Source of the DNA: Candidatus Lokiarchaeum ossiferum
GTDB lineage: Archaea; Asgardarchaeota; Lokiarchaeia; Sigyniarchaeales; Promethearchaeaceae
Direction of reading: 5' to 3'
NCBI GenBank assembly: GCA_025839675.1
Contig: CP104013.1
Coordinates: forward strand, 2,460,001-2,492,000
DNA: 32,000 nucleotides
Below are positions 9,186 to 23,720 of this stretch, in pieces. Below the pieces are notes generated by a model, which saw only the letters and a program-made list of their open reading frames with translations, made no database searches and was not told where the DNA came from. A program made the position numbers and the translations under genes. Position 1 is the first letter of the stretch. The number at the start of each line of letters is the position of its first letter.

Positions 9186-10232
9186 TTATCGGCGGAAATC
9201 TGTGTCTTTAAAAAAGGATAATAAAGAGGAAACAACAGAATCCACATTTTCCCCACCTTTTGCATTGGTAAGGATTACTTCATCCCGGTTCATTTTCAAT
9301 TCTGCCAATAAGGAGGAAATCTCTTCTTCAGTTGCAAAATCGATTTTGTTGATGACAATTTTAATCGGAATATCTAATCCTGCAGCAAAATTTGCTTCAA
9401 TTTCCCTCAATAAGGCAATTTGACTCGATACATCATATCCTGATGCTACAGTAGGATCAAAAACGAACAAAACAATGGTAGCAATGGTATTCAGAGCAAG
9501 AATGGCTTGTTTTTCAATATTGTTGCGTTTTATCATAGGTCGATCTAAAATGCCTGGTGTATCGATAACTTGAAAATATTTTGAGCCGTATTGATCCACA
9601 AAGGTGCCTAAATAAATCTGTTTAGTTGTGAAGGGATAATCAGAAACTTGAGGTTGAGCAGTAGATAATTGGCCCACAATTGTAGATTTCCCCACGTTTG
9701 GATACCCTGCGACAACTACGCTCGGTAAAGTAAGATTTACGGTAGGAACTTCTCGCAACTTTATACGACATTCTTCTAAAAAGGTTAAAATACTATTTTG
9801 CTTGCGCACAATGGAGGAACATCGCCCAAAAAACTGGGTTCGGGAATAGGCACATTGTTTTGCAGTTTCTTGTGATCCTATTTTTCGACGGTATTCTTTT
9901 TCTAATCGTTTGATTACCGGAATAATTCCATTAATTCGTCCGAGACTTTTCCGTAAATCATCATTATTGACGAGTAAATGACTTAAGCGCCGATAAAAAT
10001 CGGGAAGTTCATCTAAATTTGGGACAGATTTTACAATTTTTTCTAATTTTTCATTTAAAATTTTGACGGAATTTTCAATACGTTTGATTTCTTTCCGCTT
10101 TACCTTCTCAAGATTAGGCAAGAGTTTGGGTAAGGAGGCGGTTTTAGAGGAAGCTTTGGAAAAGGCAAAATCAAGTAACTCTTGGGCACTCCAGACACGG
10201 TAAAATTCTTCGAAGGGGTTTGAATTCTGCAT
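9186..10232 (-). CDS. NOG1-family GTP-binding protein (archaeal homologue of the ribosome-biogenesis GTPase)
   Basis: 348 aa. Helical N-terminal domain, then G1 GYPNVGKST, G2 region FTT, G3 DTPGILDRP and G4 NKID. This order and spacing are typical of NOG1/DRG-type GTPases. Confidence 0.85.
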   Translation of the reverse strand: MQNSNPFEEFYRVWSAQELLDFAFSKASSKTASLPKLLPNLEKVKRKEIKRIENSVKILNEKLEKIVKSVPNLDELPDFYRRLSHLLVNNDDLRKSLGRINGIIPVIKRLEKEYRRKIGSQETAKQCAYSRTQFFGRCSSIVRKQNSILTFLEECRIKLREVPTVNLTLPSVVVAGYPNVGKSTIVGQLSTAQPQVSDYPFTTKQIYLGTFVDQYGSKYFQVIDTPGILDRPMIKRNNIEKQAILALNTIATIVLFVFDPTVASGYDVSSQIALLREIEANFAAGLDIPIKIVINKIDFATEEEISSLLAELKMNRDEVILTNAKGGENVDSVVSSLLSFFKDTDFRR

Positions 10233-14311: not shown

Positions 14312-14417
14312 TTTTTTTCCCTCTTTTCTTTGCTTTGCAATTATGAAAAATATTATTTTTATTTAATATGTTAAAGGTTACTTGCCTATATAAGTCTGTG
14401 GATGTTTATCGTGAATA

Positions 14418-14446
14418 TTCATTGACATTCTTTGACGATCAATGAA
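14418..14446. repeat. 8-bp inverted repeat TTCATTGA-N13-TCAATGAA, with a third TCAATGA copy at 14473..14479
   Basis: Read directly from the sequence. Lies 107-168 nt upstream of the ArsR-type gene start (14311, minus strand). Confidence 0.5.
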
Positions 14447-14649
14447 CACTTTTAGAAAAATTGATTTTATGTTCAATGATCGTATGAATTCAATTTCTTA
14501 ATTTTTTATTAAAAATTTTATAAAATCTTAATAATTTGCTTAATTGAGTGTTTGATCAAACAACAATATACTTGATTATAAAGTATCACATAGAATATTT
14601 ATTTATACTTTGTGGACATTGTATTACATCTTTTTATCTCCATTTCAGC

Positions 14650-14718
14650 ACAGTTTTGCGCATTTAATACTAGGAAAAATTTACTTCTAAAAGCGGTCAT
14701 AATTTTTAGCAAAACTGT
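14650..14718. repeat. 10-bp perfect inverted repeat ACAGTTTTGC ... GCAAAACTGT (49-nt spacer), with further ACAGTTTT/AACAGTT copies at 14728 and 14850
   Basis: Read directly: ACAGTTTTGC at 14650..14659 and its reverse complement at 14709..14718. ACAGTTTT recurs at 14728..14735 and AAAACAGTT at 14850..14858. Confidence 0.5.
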
Positions 14719-15230
14719 CCTTAAGATACAGTTTTCAGAATTTCACAAAATTTATAAGCATAATCCTTTGAAAAAAGTATGAATTAGGTGAAAAGTTAAG
14801 TAGTTATATGGAAATGCAAAATAGTTATATATAAAAAAAATCAGTTTGAAAAACAGTTCAGTAAAGGGTGGTCTTACAACTAAGGTGATCTAAAAAAAAC
14901 TCCGATGAATTGGATATAAAACATATTTTAATGAAGATTATTGAAGATTACAAAAGCTTTGCAAAAAATAAAGACATTAAATTTTTTAATCAGCATTTAA
15001 CAAGCTATATGAAGTGATAGAACCCCAATTGGGAACTTTACTTGGAAACATTTCGCATGGAAAATGGAAGGAAAAGTAAAAAAAACTAGCAAACATTTCT
15101 TGTGATCTTGAAAATCACCCACAACGGATCAATTTATCTTTGTAAAAATCGATTTGTGGTGGTCTGAATAGTTTTTACTAATGGATTACTGCCCAATAGA
15201 TAAGAAGACCATATGGAAAGCAAAGAAAGC

Positions 15231-15277
15231 TTTAAATTTTGAGAAAATCATTGTATCGTCAGAATCACTAGTGATTC
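15231..15277 (+). promoter_or_regulatory. Candidate promoter/operator of the histone-fold gene: TATA-like TTTAAATT (15231..15238) and perfect 16-bp palindrome GAATCACTAGTGATTC (15262..15277)
   Basis: The palindrome starts about 24 nt downstream of the end of the TATA-like element, near the expected TSS, and ends 25 nt before the ATG at 15303. TATA-like strings are frequent in this AT-rich DNA. Confidence 0.3.
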
Positions 15278-15302
15278 ATCGTAGTTGAAAAGGTATTTCA
15301 TT

Positions 15303-15909: not shown

Positions 15910-17139
15910 ATGATGTATTTTATGCAAAAATCTATTTTGCAAGATCGTGAGGAAATATTAAAAAATTCCAAGAAACACTACTTTTCTTTAGGTGTTGATG
16001 ATGGGGCAGCCAGTTTGTGTAAGAACAATTTTCAATATGGCTTGGCTAAGATGCATTATGTCCAAAATCAACTTGGTGGTGTTTCTGATGCAACATTTAT
16101 TTCTACTCCTGATGAAACGATATCCCGAAATCGAAAGCGTTGGGAATCAGGCTATGGATATGGTGGAAAATTGACATATGGGGATAAAAAAGATCCCTTT
16201 ATTTTCATCGATACCAAACCTAATGCATGCGGAATGCTTGTAGGCGGTTTAGACAAACTTCCAAAACCAGATGAAATAATAAAACAAATCAATACAATCA
16301 TCACACAAGACAGTTATATTGATGATATCAAACTACAATGGGATTTCAAGAAGGGAAATCATTTTATTGATGTATTCCAGACAGATCAAGAATTCGGAGA
16401 TCCCAGTAAATTCCCAAAATATATGTTTGTTATCCATGGTTCGGTTCCCGAGTTACGAAATGAAACCAGTAAAGGTCCTGGACTATATTATGATAGCTCG
16501 AAAACTCTTTACGATATGTGCAATAAAATAGAAACACCTTTTGGTCCAAGTTATTATTTGGATGGTACAAATGCAAGAGAATATTTTGAGTTTTTCAAAT
16601 ATGCTAAAAAATTTGCAGCCGAGAAACGAGAAAAGGTAGCAGAACTACTTTTTGGTAAATTCGATGTTATTTCCAACCCAATGCATCAAGGTTTACTATC
16701 TTATGGGGAGATATTGCTTGGAGCTCAACATATTACCGATGATTCAAGGAAACTTTTTCCTGTGGCATTACGATCAGATTTACCACTATATATTGTGTCT
16801 GCACTTCCTAATTTATCAGATGAACAGATAGATGATCTTGGGTTTGAAAATCGAGCGAAAAAATTGGGAGTCCTGCCACATTTACAAAATCTTAATGTTC
16901 TCCCACATGGGGGAGGTTATGCTTTGCCCCACATAAATTGTGTGAAGAAGGTTTTGGAAATTGATGGAGAACGATTCTTTGTTTGTGAGCAAGAAATGGA
17001 AGATGGAATAACAATCTTCTCCGATGTAGCAGAAACACAATTCTTGTATCGCGGAAAGAAAATCATTAATAAAATTGAATCCCTTTCACTAGGTACTATA
17101 GAAGCGAAGTTACACCCAAAATTTGTTTTAAAAATATAA
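15910..17139 (+). CDS. Uncharacterised protein with RtcB-like (RNA 3'-phosphate ligase superfamily) motif order; short divergent form
   Basis: 409 aa. In order: PNAC107GM (compare RtcB DIGCGM), KGNH151FIDV (GTGNHFIE), VIH176GS (LHSGSRG), NPMH259 (CHHN), LPH333GGG (SHGAGR). The Cys to first His spacing is much shorter than in canonical RtcB. Confidence 0.4.
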   Translation: MMYFMQKSILQDREEILKNSKKHYFSLGVDDGAASLCKNNFQYGLAKMHYVQNQLGGVSDATFISTPDETISRNRKRWESGYGYGGKLTYGDKKDPFIFIDTKPNACGMLVGGLDKLPKPDEIIKQINTIITQDSYIDDIKLQWDFKKGNHFIDVFQTDQEFGDPSKFPKYMFVIHGSVPELRNETSKGPGLYYDSSKTLYDMCNKIETPFGPSYYLDGTNAREYFEFFKYAKKFAAEKREKVAELLFGKFDVISNPMHQGLLSYGEILLGAQHITDDSRKLFPVALRSDLPLYIVSALPNLSDEQIDDLGFENRAKKLGVLPHLQNLNVLPHGGGYALPHINCVKKVLEIDGERFFVCEQEMEDGITIFSDVAETQFLYRGKKIINKIESLSLGTIEAKLHPKFVLKI

Positions 17140-17168
17140 TTTTTTTTTACTAACAGGAGATTGAATAA

Positions 17169-17714
17169 ATGATACCAAAATTTTTGTTTTTCACTAGAGG
17201 AGTTGGACGAAATAAAAAAGAACTCCAATCGTTTGAATCAGCATTGAGAGATGCAGGAATATCATTTTTGAATTTGGTTACAGTATCTTCGATATTTCCA
17301 CCAAATTGCAAAGAAATTTCACGGGAAGAAGGGATGAAAAGGATAAAGCCAGGACAAATAACATTTTGTGTAATGGCTCGACATTCTTCAAATGAAAAAA
17401 ATCGGCTCGTGTCTGCTTCGATTGGAGTCGCAAAACCAAGAGACGAAAATCACTATGGATACCTAAGTGAACATCATTCTTTCGGGCAAGATGAAGATAC
17501 AGCAGGTAATTTTGCGGAAGACTTAGCAGCATCCATGTTAGCAAGCACTTTGGGAATTCCTTTTGATATTGATGCGAATTATGATGATAAACGGGAGATT
17601 TTTCACTTGAGTGACAAAATCATCGAAACCAAAAGCACAACCGCAACAGCAATTGTTGAAAAAGATGGTGAATACACCACCGTTATTGCTGCAGCAGTTT
17701 TTATCCTAGAATAA
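17169..17714 (+). CDS. pdaD: Pyruvoyl-dependent arginine decarboxylase
   Basis: 181 aa. FFTRGVG near the N-terminus and the self-cleavage site context NLVTVSSIFPP (Ser-Ser). Overall collinear with archaeal PdaD. GGAG lies 10 nt upstream of the ATG. Confidence 0.9.
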   Translation: MIPKFLFFTRGVGRNKKELQSFESALRDAGISFLNLVTVSSIFPPNCKEISREEGMKRIKPGQITFCVMARHSSNEKNRLVSASIGVAKPRDENHYGYLSEHHSFGQDEDTAGNFAEDLAASMLASTLGIPFDIDANYDDKREIFHLSDKIIETKSTTATAIVEKDGEYTTVIAAAVFILE

Positions 17715-17744
17715 TCAATAAAGATTAATAAATTGGAGAAAAAA

Positions 17745-18749
17745 ATGACGAAACACCTGTTACGGTCAAAAGTAGAACCATTCGATCCTAAAAAAGTTAA
17801 AACTGTACAAGACGCGTTCGAAGCTTTATCACATACGTCTTTCCAAGGGCGAAATCTCGGAAAAGCATTGGATGTGATGTTCCAAATGGTGCAAGAAGAG
17901 TCATGTCTAAAAGTTCTGACTCTTTCGGGAGCAATGGTTCCAGCTGGAATGGAAGAAATTGTCTGCCAATTGATTGAACATCACATTATTGATGCTGTTG
18001 TCACAACAGGTGCAAACATTATTCATTCAATAGTAAATTCCTTTGATCCAACACCCGAACATCAAGCCCATTATATCGGAGCTGAAGGTGTTGATGATGC
18101 TGAATTGTATAAACACCGGATAAATCGAATTTATGATATTTTTTTACCCGAAGAGGGATATGGATATGCTGAAGATGGATTACTGCAAATAATTTCAGAA
18201 AAATTTAGTCCATCGATAAAACATGTTCTTACTCCTTCTGAACTCTTCGAATTTTTAGGGGAAAAACTACCCGGAAGAGGATTATTACAAGTAGCTTATC
18301 AAAATAAGACGCCAATATTTTGTGGAGCAACTTCCGATTCGGAGCTAGGTTTAAACTTGATGAAATACCGAAAACGCAACGATATTAATATCACCCTGGA
18401 TGAGCTTAAGGATATCGAATATTTTGCAAACTTGATCAGGAAGCACGAACACTATGGCACAATAATTATAGGCGGAGGAGTTCCCCGCAATTGGGCACAA
18501 CAAGTTTTCCCATATTTGGATCAAATGGATCAAGGTACGGGGGGAAAACAATACAATGGCTATCATTATAGTATAAGATTTCATACAGCAACACAATACG
18601 ATGGTGGCCTCTCCGGATGTACGATTTCGGAAAGTATTTCATGGGGTAAATATGCAAAGAACGCGACACATCAAAGTGTTTGGGTTGATGCCACAATTGG
18701 ATTTCCCTTAATTGTGACAGCACTTTTTCAGAAATTGGGATTGATTTGA
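17745..18749 (+). CDS. dys: Deoxyhypusine synthase
   Basis: The ORF track starts at TTG 17733. ATG 17745 is preceded by GGAG. Family blocks LSGAMVPAGM, TTGANIIHS, IGGGVPRNW and SWGK (active-site Lys region). Confidence 0.9.
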   Translation: MTKHLLRSKVEPFDPKKVKTVQDAFEALSHTSFQGRNLGKALDVMFQMVQEESCLKVLTLSGAMVPAGMEEIVCQLIEHHIIDAVVTTGANIIHSIVNSFDPTPEHQAHYIGAEGVDDAELYKHRINRIYDIFLPEEGYGYAEDGLLQIISEKFSPSIKHVLTPSELFEFLGEKLPGRGLLQVAYQNKTPIFCGATSDSELGLNLMKYRKRNDINITLDELKDIEYFANLIRKHEHYGTIIIGGGVPRNWAQQVFPYLDQMDQGTGGKQYNGYHYSIRFHTATQYDGGLSGCTISESISWGKYAKNATHQSVWVDATIGFPLIVTALFQKLGLI

Positions 18750-21775: not shown

Positions 21776-22015
21776 TTAATTTGCTTCGGGCTCGATAAAT
21801 AACACATTATTTCCACGGACAAATAGTTCTTCGAATTTTCCGGATTCTTCGTTATTGGTAAATTCAACAGCATTGGTTACGATGATATTCATAAAATTAT
21901 CATATTCTTTTAAATTCCCAACATATCGGGTGCCATCTTTTAACCGAACAACAATTTCTTGACCGATACGTTTTTGCAAAGCACGCAATGGATTTCGTGA
22001 GTTATTATAAGCCAT
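21776..22015 (-). CDS. Sm-like (LSm/SmAP) RNA-binding protein
   Basis: 79 aa. Sm1 IVVRLKDGTRYVGNLKEYDNFMNIIVTNA and Sm2 FVRGNNVLFIEP. Confidence 0.9.
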   Translation of the reverse strand: MAYNNSRNPLRALQKRIGQEIVVRLKDGTRYVGNLKEYDNFMNIIVTNAVEFTNNEESGKFEELFVRGNNVLFIEPEAN

Positions 22016-22805: not shown

Positions 22806-23720
22806 TTAATATTTTTCTAACTGTGATCGTTCAGAACCAAACATTCTATCAAGAAATTCATCTACATCAAAGGTAACTTCATAATTTTTCAAGAAAAAGT
22901 GCTGAATATTTTGCAGATCTCGCGCCAGATAAGAGAGAGCATTTGGATGGGTAGACTCTTCCCATTGAGGAAAATCGATCAATTGAACTTGTTCATCGGC
23001 AGCCATTACAATATTGAATTCACCTAAATCACAATGAATTAAGTGGGCTTCGGTAAATAAAGCTTCAACAATGCGCAAAATTTGATTGACTACATCCATA
23101 GGGTCCGTTAACGGAGGGATCAAGCTTAAATCATTGCCATCGATCAATTCCATAACCACGATATGCCGGTTTTGGCCAAGAGCTTTTGGAACATTCAAAT
23201 TTAAAGGTTCAATTCGTTTCAATGCTTCATATTCGCTTTCAGCAGATAGGCGACTTACGTATAACCAAGAAATATGACGACGATTTTTCACATAATTGCG
23301 AAGTTTCCTTACTTTACGAAAACTTGTTTGACCAATACGATGAATTTTTAGAGCCACATCGTTTCCATCGGGAGTTTTTCCAAAAAAAACATCCGATTCT
23401 TTTCCCCGCCCGATAGCGTCACCTACGGCAACTACAATATTTTTTTCAACGAGTGCATTTAGTGCCAAAACATCGTAAGATTCAGAAATTAGTTGATAAC
23501 CGATATATCCCAACTGAGAACTTCTTTGTAAAATACCAATTTGATGAATTTTATCCAATCTAAATTGAGTTTCAGAACGATTAATTCGGGCATAAAAACT
23601 AATTTGTTCCACAGGGACAAATTGGAATCGGCGCATCCCCAATTCAATTCCAGTTAAAATACGAAGGTCTTCTTTATCCAATTCTCTTACAAGATTAGCA
23701 GCACGGAAAATTTGAGGCAT
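22806..23720 (-). CDS. rio2: Rio2-type atypical serine protein kinase (N-terminal winged helix plus RIO domain)
   Basis: 304 aa. The wHTH region RILTGIELGMRRFQFVPVEQI is collinear with archaeal Rio2. Also GRGKESDVF (P-loop-like), VALKIHRIGQTSFRKV, and catalytic IHCDLGEFNI followed by LIDFPQ. Confidence 0.9.
   Translation of the reverse strand: MPQIFRAANLVRELDKEDLRILTGIELGMRRFQFVPVEQISFYARINRSETQFRLDKIHQIGILQRSSQLGYIGYQLISESYDVLALNALVEKNIVVAVGDAIGRGKESDVFFGKTPDGNDVALKIHRIGQTSFRKVRKLRNYVKNRRHISWLYVSRLSAESEYEALKRIEPLNLNVPKALGQNRHIVVMELIDGNDLSLIPPLTDPMDVVNQILRIVEALFTEAHLIHCDLGEFNIVMAADEQVQLIDFPQWEESTHPNALSYLARDLQNIQHFFLKNYEVTFDVDEFLDRMFGSERSQLEKY

Follow-up and report, generated by a model that had tools for sequence, protein, structure and literature searches.

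The window analyzed here, a 32,000-nucleotide (nt) stretch of the Candidatus Lokiarchaeum ossiferum genome (contig CP104013.1, positions 2,460,001 to 2,492,000), carries a cluster of three genes on its plus strand: a gene that we call X, followed by pdaD and dys. Our concern is with X, its relationship to the RtcB RNA ligases and the company it keeps in other genomes. The features of the cluster are as follows (aa, amino acids).

15910..17139, plus strand: gene X, a predicted divergent RtcB-superfamily protein; open reading frame (ORF) of 409 aa, probable true start at ATG 15922, giving 405 aa
17140..17148, plus strand: T9 tract directly after the X stop codon, a possible archaeal terminator between X and pdaD
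17156..17159, plus strand: GGAG Shine-Dalgarno-like motif, 9 nt ahead of the pdaD ATG
17169..17714, plus strand: pdaD, pyruvoyl-dependent arginine decarboxylase, 181 aa (PF01862, E 2.5e-60; TIGR00286, 129 bits, exceeding the cutoff of 107)
17735..17738, plus strand: GGAG Shine-Dalgarno-like motif, 6 nt ahead of the dys ATG
17745..18749, plus strand: dys, deoxyhypusine synthase family, 334 aa from the ATG (PF01916, E 3.1e-81; NF002006, 262 bits, under the cutoff of 434)

All three genes share one strand and the spacers are short (29 nt between X and pdaD, 30 nt between pdaD and dys); the coordinates, with a GGAG motif before each downstream gene, bear out the layout given in a preliminary description of the locus. 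The names that the description gave to the downstream genes fare unequally. That of pdaD stands by both PF01862 and TIGR00286; dys is supported by PF01916, and its best NCBIfam model is deoxyhypusine synthase, yet the score falls under every equivalog cutoff. A TTG at 17733 is also open as a dys start. As to X, the N-termini of its orthologues and the database gene call both begin at M5, and the start is therefore likely at 15922, with a protein of 405 aa. Two Lokiarchaeia dys genes, that of the window and that of P. syntrophicum (locus L018, 9834..10811), score 262 and 248 bits against the NCBIfam cutoff of 434 despite good PF01916 scores; judged by these scores they are a putative divergent lineage of deoxyhypusine synthase (DHS).

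No Pfam, NCBIfam or PDB sequence match to X was found, and PF01139, the RtcB family, is absent even at E<=1. Shallow searches for RtcB likeness (phmmer against the PDB, hmmsearch against the PDB with a 34-sequence profile, and hhalign at an effective number of sequences, Neff, of 2.6-3.1) were not significant. An AlphaFold2 model of X was obtained from 34 orthologues, with a mean predicted local distance difference (pLDDT) of 90.7 and a predicted template-modeling (TM) score (pTM) of 0.89. Comparison of this model to the PDB using Foldseek gave 14 matches at E<=1e-3, all of them RtcB (human, zebrafish, Pyrococcus and Thermus), with E values from 1.8e-8 to 4.2e-6, TM-scores of 0.43-0.49 and identities of 10-12%; the next match has an E value of 0.3. 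Against a library of viral structures the sole significant match is a phage RtcB (E 5.9e-10, TM 0.52/0.56). A deep profile of the X family, comprising 100 sequences of which 88 are added divergent members (Neff 6.4), was aligned to RtcB by hhalign with a probability of 96.7% and an E value of 4.4e-10 over 278 columns. From the RtcB side, a large-database search with an RtcB alignment gained little diversity, most of what it retrieved being vertebrate and gamma-proteobacterial RtcBs. The kinship with RtcB rests on two independent lines, the Foldseek structure matches and the deep profile-profile alignment; on the predicted model, X has the RtcB fold. The suggestion in the preliminary description that X is RtcB-like is upheld by both comparisons. 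Its view of X as a short RtcB is not: some 405 aa is nothing unusual (E. coli RtcB has 408), and the difference lies in which segments are present. The segment between the Cys and the first His of the predicted active site, described as about half the canonical length, does indeed span 44 residues in X; the corresponding lengths are 90 for E. coli RtcB and 105 for P. horikoshii RtcB.

Residue conservation was counted in the 100 family members, which reach down to 21% identity to X, and the P. horikoshii and E. coli RtcB numbering was verified from HMMER alignments. RtcB residue numbers are those of P. horikoshii unless marked Ec (E. coli); M1 and M2 denote the two metal sites.

16111..16140, plus strand: D68...R77, counterpart of RtcB P-D-x-H; Asp kept in 93%, His replaced by Arg77 (87%) after a 7-residue insertion
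16222..16230, plus strand: N105-A-C107, counterpart of RtcB D95-I-N-C98; metal-bridging Cys kept in 95%, M2 Asp replaced by Asn (89% N, 5% D)
16357..16362, plus strand: N150-H151 (in G-N-H-F), corresponding to RtcB N202-H203; N150 predicted phosphate/5'-OH contact, H151 predicted M2 ligand
16435..16437, plus strand: H176 (in I-H-G-S), corresponding to RtcB H234, predicted M1 ligand; 100% conserved
16684..16689, plus strand: H259-Q260, corresponding to RtcB H329-N330 (M1 ligand; gamma-phosphate contact), with a register uncertain by +/-1 residue
16903..16920, plus strand: P332-H333-G-G-G-Y337, corresponding to RtcB H404-G-A-G-R; H333 is the predicted nucleotidylated His, and the motif Arg is replaced by Tyr337
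17047..17052, plus strand: Y380-R381, aligned with RtcB Y451-K452; nucleotide pocket, by profile alignment
17131..17133, plus strand: K408, aligned with RtcB K480 (guanine O6 contact); invariant in the core clade, 72% K/R in the deep family
R240 (from the hhalign map): counterpart of Ec Arg247, the invariant helix Arg

The preliminary description had singled out C107, H151, H176, H259 and H333-G-x-G as the metal ligands and nucleotidylated His of RtcB. The deep alignment maps them accordingly, and their conservation is equally clear: together with N150 they are invariant in the 34 orthologues, while among the 100 members H151, H176, H259 and H333 are kept in 100%, N150 in 97% and C107 in 95%. 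Other positions are close behind (R240, 97%; D68, 93%; P332, G334 and G336, 96-99%). We prefer to equate H259 with His329 because H259 is invariant and the local motifs match (D-V-I-S-N-P-M-H-Q in X, D-I-V-Y-D-V-A-H-N in RtcB). Tyr451, with which Y380 aligns, is the residue that we take to stack on the base in RtcB-GMP structures. Thus the counterparts of all three M1 ligands (Cys98, His234 and His329) are kept as C107, H176 and H259. For the M2 ligands (Asp95, Cys98 and His203), C107 and H151 are kept and the Asp column holds N105; an acidic residue, D/E101 (68% acidic), stands four residues upstream. The column of Glu206 holds D154 in the core clade and varies among D, N, E and G across the family. 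That of Arg238 (Ec Arg189) holds P180 (P 32%, S 18%, R 9%), with a K/R183 (91%) three residues on that might, from its conservation, substitute for the lost Arg. The roles of these residues as metal ligands and phosphate contacts, and of Lys480 and Glu206 as guanine contacts, are known from RtcB-GTP-metal structures (PMC9745838); in the complex of RtcB with a 5'-OH oligonucleotide, Arg238 binds the first phosphodiesters of the 5'-OH strand (PMC8051266). X appears to keep the binuclear-metal and nucleotide site and is apparently catalytically intact. The overall pattern is consistent with an active metallo-enzyme that becomes nucleotidylated on a His and that would hold its second substrate differently from RtcB.

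A large protein collection holds 562 homologues of X, all of about 400 aa and none with a name. When 1.84 billion cluster representatives were searched exhaustively with a profile, 349 clusters scored E<=1e-3 and canonical RtcB was not among them, which shows the family to be small and discrete. Scanning a single genome per species yielded 143 relatives, for which 80 loci were retrieved (counts of neighbors below refer to 80 or 81 loci). Archaeal carriers comprise Lokiarchaeia, Hel-, Odin- and Thorarchaeia, Bathyarchaeia, Methanocellales, Thermoplasmata and a Korarchaeia-like genome; bacterial carriers comprise Planctomycetota, Anaerolineae, Spirochaetota, Clostridia, Actinomycetes, Desulfobacterota-like genomes, Armatimonadota, Aerophobetes and others. 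The majority of family members are bacterial, many of the bacterial phyla concerned are anaerobic, and identity to X across archaea and bacteria is 45-52%. A distant subfamily was seen in a metagenome scan as 19 mostly short loci with poor gene calls, for which the HD partner introduced below was found at L107 only. A role in defense or in phages was considered and set aside, there being no match for X in the PADLOC and PHROGs libraries or in a scan of viral contigs.

The genomes that carry X may also carry canonical RtcB. P. syntrophicum MK-D1 has two copies of X in addition to a canonical RtcB (DSAG12_00509; COG1690, arCOG04246, K14415). The orthogroup table of the L. ossiferum paper (Supplementary Table 2) lists a canonical RtcB (ORTHOMCL535; PF01139, K14415) and archease (ORTHOMCL555) in both genomes, and a further orthogroup common to both, ORTHOMCL52, which has no Pfam, KEGG or arCOG assignment and is labeled 'RtcB, RNA-splicing ligase' under Asgard-COG cog.002090 (PMC9834061). 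A canonical RtcB elsewhere in the L. ossiferum genome is therewith confirmed as ORTHOMCL535. Only ORTHOMCL535 and ORTHOMCL52 mention RtcB in that table, and since the former is canonical, ORTHOMCL52 is very probably the X family. The resemblance of the X family to RtcB has probably, then, been recorded already in the Asgard-COG annotation, and the novelty of the kinship is moderate. The low index of ORTHOMCL52 suggests several members, and there may be more X-like paralogues than two per genome. On two further contigs, one from Bathyarchaeia (L022) and one from Spirochaetota (L064), canonical RtcB lies within 3 kb of X. Because canonical RtcB and archease are present in both Lokiarchaeia genomes, X is not the housekeeping splicing ligase.

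To find the genes that accompany X, all neighboring ORFs were clustered without prior assumptions. The dominant neighbor is an HD-domain protein of about 217 aa (PF01966, E 1.5e-10) that, counted using hidden Markov models, directly adjoins X in 33 of 80 loci drawn from 13 lineage groups of archaea and bacteria; the window itself contains no such gene. Its closest solved relatives are of the YpgQ/YedJ type (PDB 5dqv, 3gw7, 3djb and 2pq7), at a weak E of 1e-7 to 1e-4; YpgQ is a Mn-dependent (d)NTP pyrophosphohydrolase (PMC8177086). In seven Lokiarchaeia loci a GDPD gene adjoins the HD partner, and four loci hold a double calcineurin-like phosphoesterase in a module with the HD gene and X (c22-HD-X). 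Archease (PF01951, E 3.7e-46) adjoins X in three of the 80 loci (L022, L023 and L064); neither RtcA nor RtcR was seen near X in any of the 80. Other neighbors include a PolX-PHP polymerase directly downstream of X in four Planctomycetota loci, a TIGR00375-family PHP protein in six loci of Clostridia and Aerophobetes, and translation genes, namely glutamyl-tRNA synthetase and ribosomal proteins in Methanocellales and methionyl-tRNA synthetase in other Asgard genomes.

A further set of neighbors, which includes a conserved module of bacteria, concerns amines and amide ligation. In Spirochaetota (L063, 5453..10881; L081), and also in L006 (2117..8014), a radical S-adenosylmethionine (SAM) gene of the lysine-2,3-aminomutase (LAM) type is followed by an ATP-grasp gene, X and a second ATP-grasp gene. 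A Cys-rich protein of 203 aa without Pfam match lies between X and the second ATP-grasp gene; in L006 an HD gene takes its place. The ATP-grasp genes of the two Spirochaetota loci and L006 are D-Ala-D-Ala-ligase-like, and in P. syntrophicum X-pdaD-dys is preceded upstream by two ATP-grasp genes, one of which has a GNAT domain fused to it.

The association with pdaD and dys is the narrower one: of 81 loci, 13 have pdaD in the vicinity of X, 12 have dys or a dys-like gene there, and 68 have neither. The tight same-strand order X-pdaD-dys occurs in six loci, all from Lokiarchaeia (the window, L009, L011, L015, L018 and L037), and among the retrieved loci it was not found outside this class. The conservation in relatives that the preliminary description would lead one to expect is thus real and confined to Lokiarchaeia. 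In L011, L015 and L037 the GDPD gene and the HD partner lie divergently upstream of X-pdaD-dys. X is duplicated in L. ossiferum (window and L002), in P. syntrophicum (L018 and L010) and in one metagenome-assembled genome (MAG; L009 and L014); one copy keeps pdaD-dys and the other has the L010-type neighborhood, in which GDPD and HD genes stand upstream of X in P. syntrophicum and the MAG and were not called at L002 of L. ossiferum. Lokiarchaeia genomes with a single copy of X have GDPD, HD and pdaD-dys all at one locus, and a rough neighbor-joining tree can accommodate a combined locus in their ancestor that split later. In P. syntrophicum (L003/L018, 8832..10634 region) a gene for an ATP-dependent DNA ligase converges on the end of dys with an overlap of a few bases.

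Outside Lokiarchaeia the picture is different in kind. Six Planctomycetota loci (L038, L044, L048, L054, L056 and L058) contain pdaD, agmatinase and a dys-like gene on the strand opposite to X, from which the cluster is separated by two genes, one kinase-like and one of the TetR type. The dys-like gene encodes a 1,9-bis(guanidino)-5-aza-nonane synthase (596 bits against a cutoff of 500), and the cluster is therefore a polyamine operon. Such a pdaD-agmatinase-synthase operon corresponds to a route from agmatine to homospermidine; X is there followed by the PolX-PHP polymerase and a THEP1-type NTPase. In one Bathyarchaeia locus pdaD lies 2 kb upstream of X. The placement of X ahead of pdaD-dys is an arrangement specific to Lokiarchaeia and no sign of a missing hypusine enzyme.

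Nor is it certain that X shares a transcript with its neighbors. Archaeal RNA polymerase terminates at oligo-T, and tracts of T>=6 occur within 40 nt after the stop codon of 14 of the 28 genes in the window (for example at 1496, 17140 and 30508), compared to 7.8% of random 40-nt windows. They are absent from the tight same-strand junctions 4025/4138, 5898/5919 and pdaD/dys. This pattern fits oligo-T transcription termination in this archaeon, and because a T9 tract follows its stop codon X probably has its own transcript end in the window, leaving pdaD-dys as the better-supported candidate for a co-transcribed pair. The co-transcription of all three genes proposed earlier is thus favored by the shared strand, short spacers and GGAG motifs, and made less secure, as regards X, by the T9 tract. 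P. syntrophicum shows a different configuration: the X-pdaD spacer is 16 nt long, with a GGAG and no T-run, and a T10 stands between pdaD and dys. In other Lokiarchaeia the spacers are about 60-75 nt. The order of the genes is conserved; the transcript structure apparently is not.

Taken together, these observations make it probable, in our judgment, that X is a member of a discrete, strongly conserved and biochemically uncharacterized branch of the RtcB superfamily, whose enzymes join 3'-phosphate to 5'-hydroxyl ends of nucleic acids. The enzyme would work like RtcB, using a divalent metal, probably Mn2+, and a nucleoside triphosphate (NTP), probably GTP in the core clade. The nucleoside monophosphate (NMP) would be loaded covalently onto H333 and passed to a terminal phosphate, producing an activated, pyrophosphate-linked end; attack by a hydroxyl on this end would then yield a phosphodiester. 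With less assurance, we suggest a broken RNA or DNA end as the most likely substrate and, because canonical RtcB and archease reside in the same genomes, repair or processing beyond tRNA splicing as the role of X. The HD phosphohydrolase would be its normal partner, probably trimming ends or removing an NMP cap. An ancestral locus with HD divergent from X-pdaD-dys, later duplicated and split, could have given rise to the arrangement in Lokiarchaeia.

Several points weigh against this reading. X has no PF01139 match and finds no RtcB in single-sequence searches, shallow profiles align to RtcB by hhalign with a probability of just 3-5%, and the TM-scores are moderate (0.43-0.52). The residue equivalences come from profile alignment rather than from superposition of coordinates. 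Three functional residues differ at the aligned positions: the M2 Asp is Asn105, the Arg that holds the 5'-OH strand (Ph R238/Ec R189) aligns with Pro180, and the Arg of the H-G-A-G-R motif is Tyr337; because of these changes a polynucleotide substrate is not assured. The family is not basic (isoelectric point about 6.2). Finally, the reading leaves unaccounted for the genes for cationic amines and amide ligases that recur near X in several unrelated lineages.

It is to these last points that the most serious alternative speaks. X might perform RtcB-type chemistry on something other than a polynucleotide, such as a small phospho-metabolite, a lipid head group or a protein, with the HD protein reversing or editing the product and the link to amines (agmatine, homospermidine, beta-lysine, ATP-grasp ligases) being functional. 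The residues for the 5'-OH strand and the motif Arg are not kept at the aligned positions, the family is mildly acidic, and pdaD or DHS-family genes stand near X in Lokiarchaeia, Planctomycetota and one Bathyarchaeia locus, as do LAM-type radical SAM and ATP-grasp genes, which flank it in Spirochaetota and L006, with ATP-grasp genes upstream in P. syntrophicum; the GDPD gene beside the HD partner in seven Lokiarchaeia loci is a further pointer. We nevertheless hold this alternative to be unlikely: no relative of RtcB is known to act beyond nucleic-acid ends, the amine-related neighbors occur in a minority of lineages (those of Planctomycetota on the opposite strand and two genes off), the archease, RtcB, PolX, TIGR00375 and translation-gene neighbors point to nucleic acids, and the conserved basic residues K/R183, R77 and R381 could stand in for the lost arginines. 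A more specific variant, which we regard as a speculation with little in its favor, is that X and the HD protein use phosphate activation through His-NMP to attach or process a cationic-amine group (derived from agmatine, a polyamine or beta-lysine) on RNA, a translation factor or a phospho-metabolite. If true, it would account for the position of X beside pdaD and DHS-family or LAM/ATP-grasp genes in unrelated lineages.

The preliminary description had itself offered another explanation, namely that X supplies a missing step in the hypusination of aIF5A, such as the deoxyhypusine hydroxylase (DOHH), or that it is a ligase or modifier acting on translation factors and co-expressed with pdaD-dys. 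The common strand, the 16-29 nt spacers and GGAG motifs in L. ossiferum and P. syntrophicum, and the order kept in six Lokiarchaeia loci are what one could cite for it. The conserved site, however, is that of a nucleotidyl-transferring ligase and unlike an oxygenase, with none of the features of a HEAT-repeat di-iron hydroxylase, the known DOHH being a HEAT-repeat di-iron protein. Most members are from bacteria, which lack aIF5A and hypusine; dys or pdaD is present at 12-13 of 81 loci, compared to 33 of 80 for HD, and the remaining 68 have neither; of the 12 with dys or a dys-like gene six carry the bacterial polyamine synthase that neighbors X in Planctomycetota. In addition, paralogues of X stand elsewhere in the same genomes with the HD partner, a terminator-like T9 tract separates X from pdaD, and spacers elsewhere in Lokiarchaeia reach about 60-75 nt. 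The taxonomic distribution already leaves little of the idea that X supplies a missing hypusine step, and we consider the explanation as a whole very improbable. Even less credit is due to the view that X is a shortened tRNA-splicing or general RtcB ligase, for all that it has the predicted fold and catalytic residues and is probably labeled 'RtcB' by cog.002090: a canonical RtcB (PF01139/K14415/arCOG04246) and archease are present in both Lokiarchaeia genomes, the two kinds of protein share a contig in L022 and L064, and the X family is rare (about 350 clusters) and patchy, occurring in some archaeal lineages only. That X is a catalytically dead scaffold seems to us the least probable of all. 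Its M2 ligand Asp is replaced by Asn, and guanylylation of human RTCB needs all five metal ligands (PMC10944509); but four His kept in 100%, Cys in 95% and Asn in 97% of members, with identities as low as 21%, are the mark of an active site that works. Moreover, Asn can coordinate Mn2+, as is generally known.

For the remainder of the window we note the following. Upstream of the cluster, a region of about 970 nt (14312..15284) is devoid of ORFs of >=60 aa on both strands and matches nothing in Rfam and no tRNA; scans of the window with Rfam, for tRNAs and for bacterial promoters and terminators were uninformative. Other genes include those for a NOG1-type GTPase (9186..10232), a small protein that is Sm-like by eye (21776..22015), a Rio2 kinase (22806..23720) and an 816-aa peptidase of the clostripain family (C11; 24898..27348).

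If X is the RtcB relative that we propose, it represents a second, deeply divergent branch of RtcB-class enzymes that is invisible to Pfam and NCBI annotation. Its conservation across Asgard archaea and a dozen bacterial phyla, at 45-50% identity between the two, its retention beside the canonical enzyme and its possession of an HD partner of its own imply a distinct function that has been selected. The proteins are compact, soluble and single-domain, with clear predicted catalytic residues, and are thus directly testable. As regards the missing deoxyhypusine hydroxylase of archaea, the gene next to pdaD-dys can be discounted as a credible candidate, a negative result that is itself of use.

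With RtcB (PF01139, COG1690; P. horikoshii, E. coli, human RTCB) it shares the predicted fold, a detectable profile homology and counterparts of the Cys and three His ligands, the Asn-His pair, the H-G-x-G nucleophile, the helix Arg, the Tyr and the C-terminal Lys. It differs in the absence of a PF01139 match, with 10-12% identity. The stretch from the Cys to the N-H motif lacks about 45 residues, X carries an insertion of its own around residues 300-325, and its N-terminus is extended by about 40 residues, with a conserved D31. It differs also in the change of P-D-x-H to P-D-x8-R and of the M2 Asp to Asn, and in the failure to keep the 5'-OH-strand Arg (R238/R189) and motif Arg (R408/R341) at the aligned positions. 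The partner of X is an HD hydrolase rather than RtcA, RtcR or PrfH, with archease adjacent in three loci only, and X coexists with canonical RtcB. That partner has its closest solved relatives in the stand-alone HD hydrolases YpgQ and YedJ, although the similarity is weak and the X-linked group is uncharacterized. The agmatine/DHS-family clusters are matched by the tight pdaD-dys pair of the window, which has no T-tract between its genes, and in polyamine version by the cluster of Planctomycetota; yet these clusters are not defined by an RtcB-like gene, and X is an add-on to them in Lokiarchaeia only. Extra RtcB enzymes in bacteria reportedly include RtcB2-PrfH, which acts in ribosome repair, and RtcB1-3 of M. 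xanthus, which are said to have capping activity. These provide a precedent for additional RtcB-type enzymes with specialized roles in repair or capping that are defined by a dedicated neighbor gene; they are, however, canonical members of PF01139, whereas X belongs to a much deeper branch and has a different partner.

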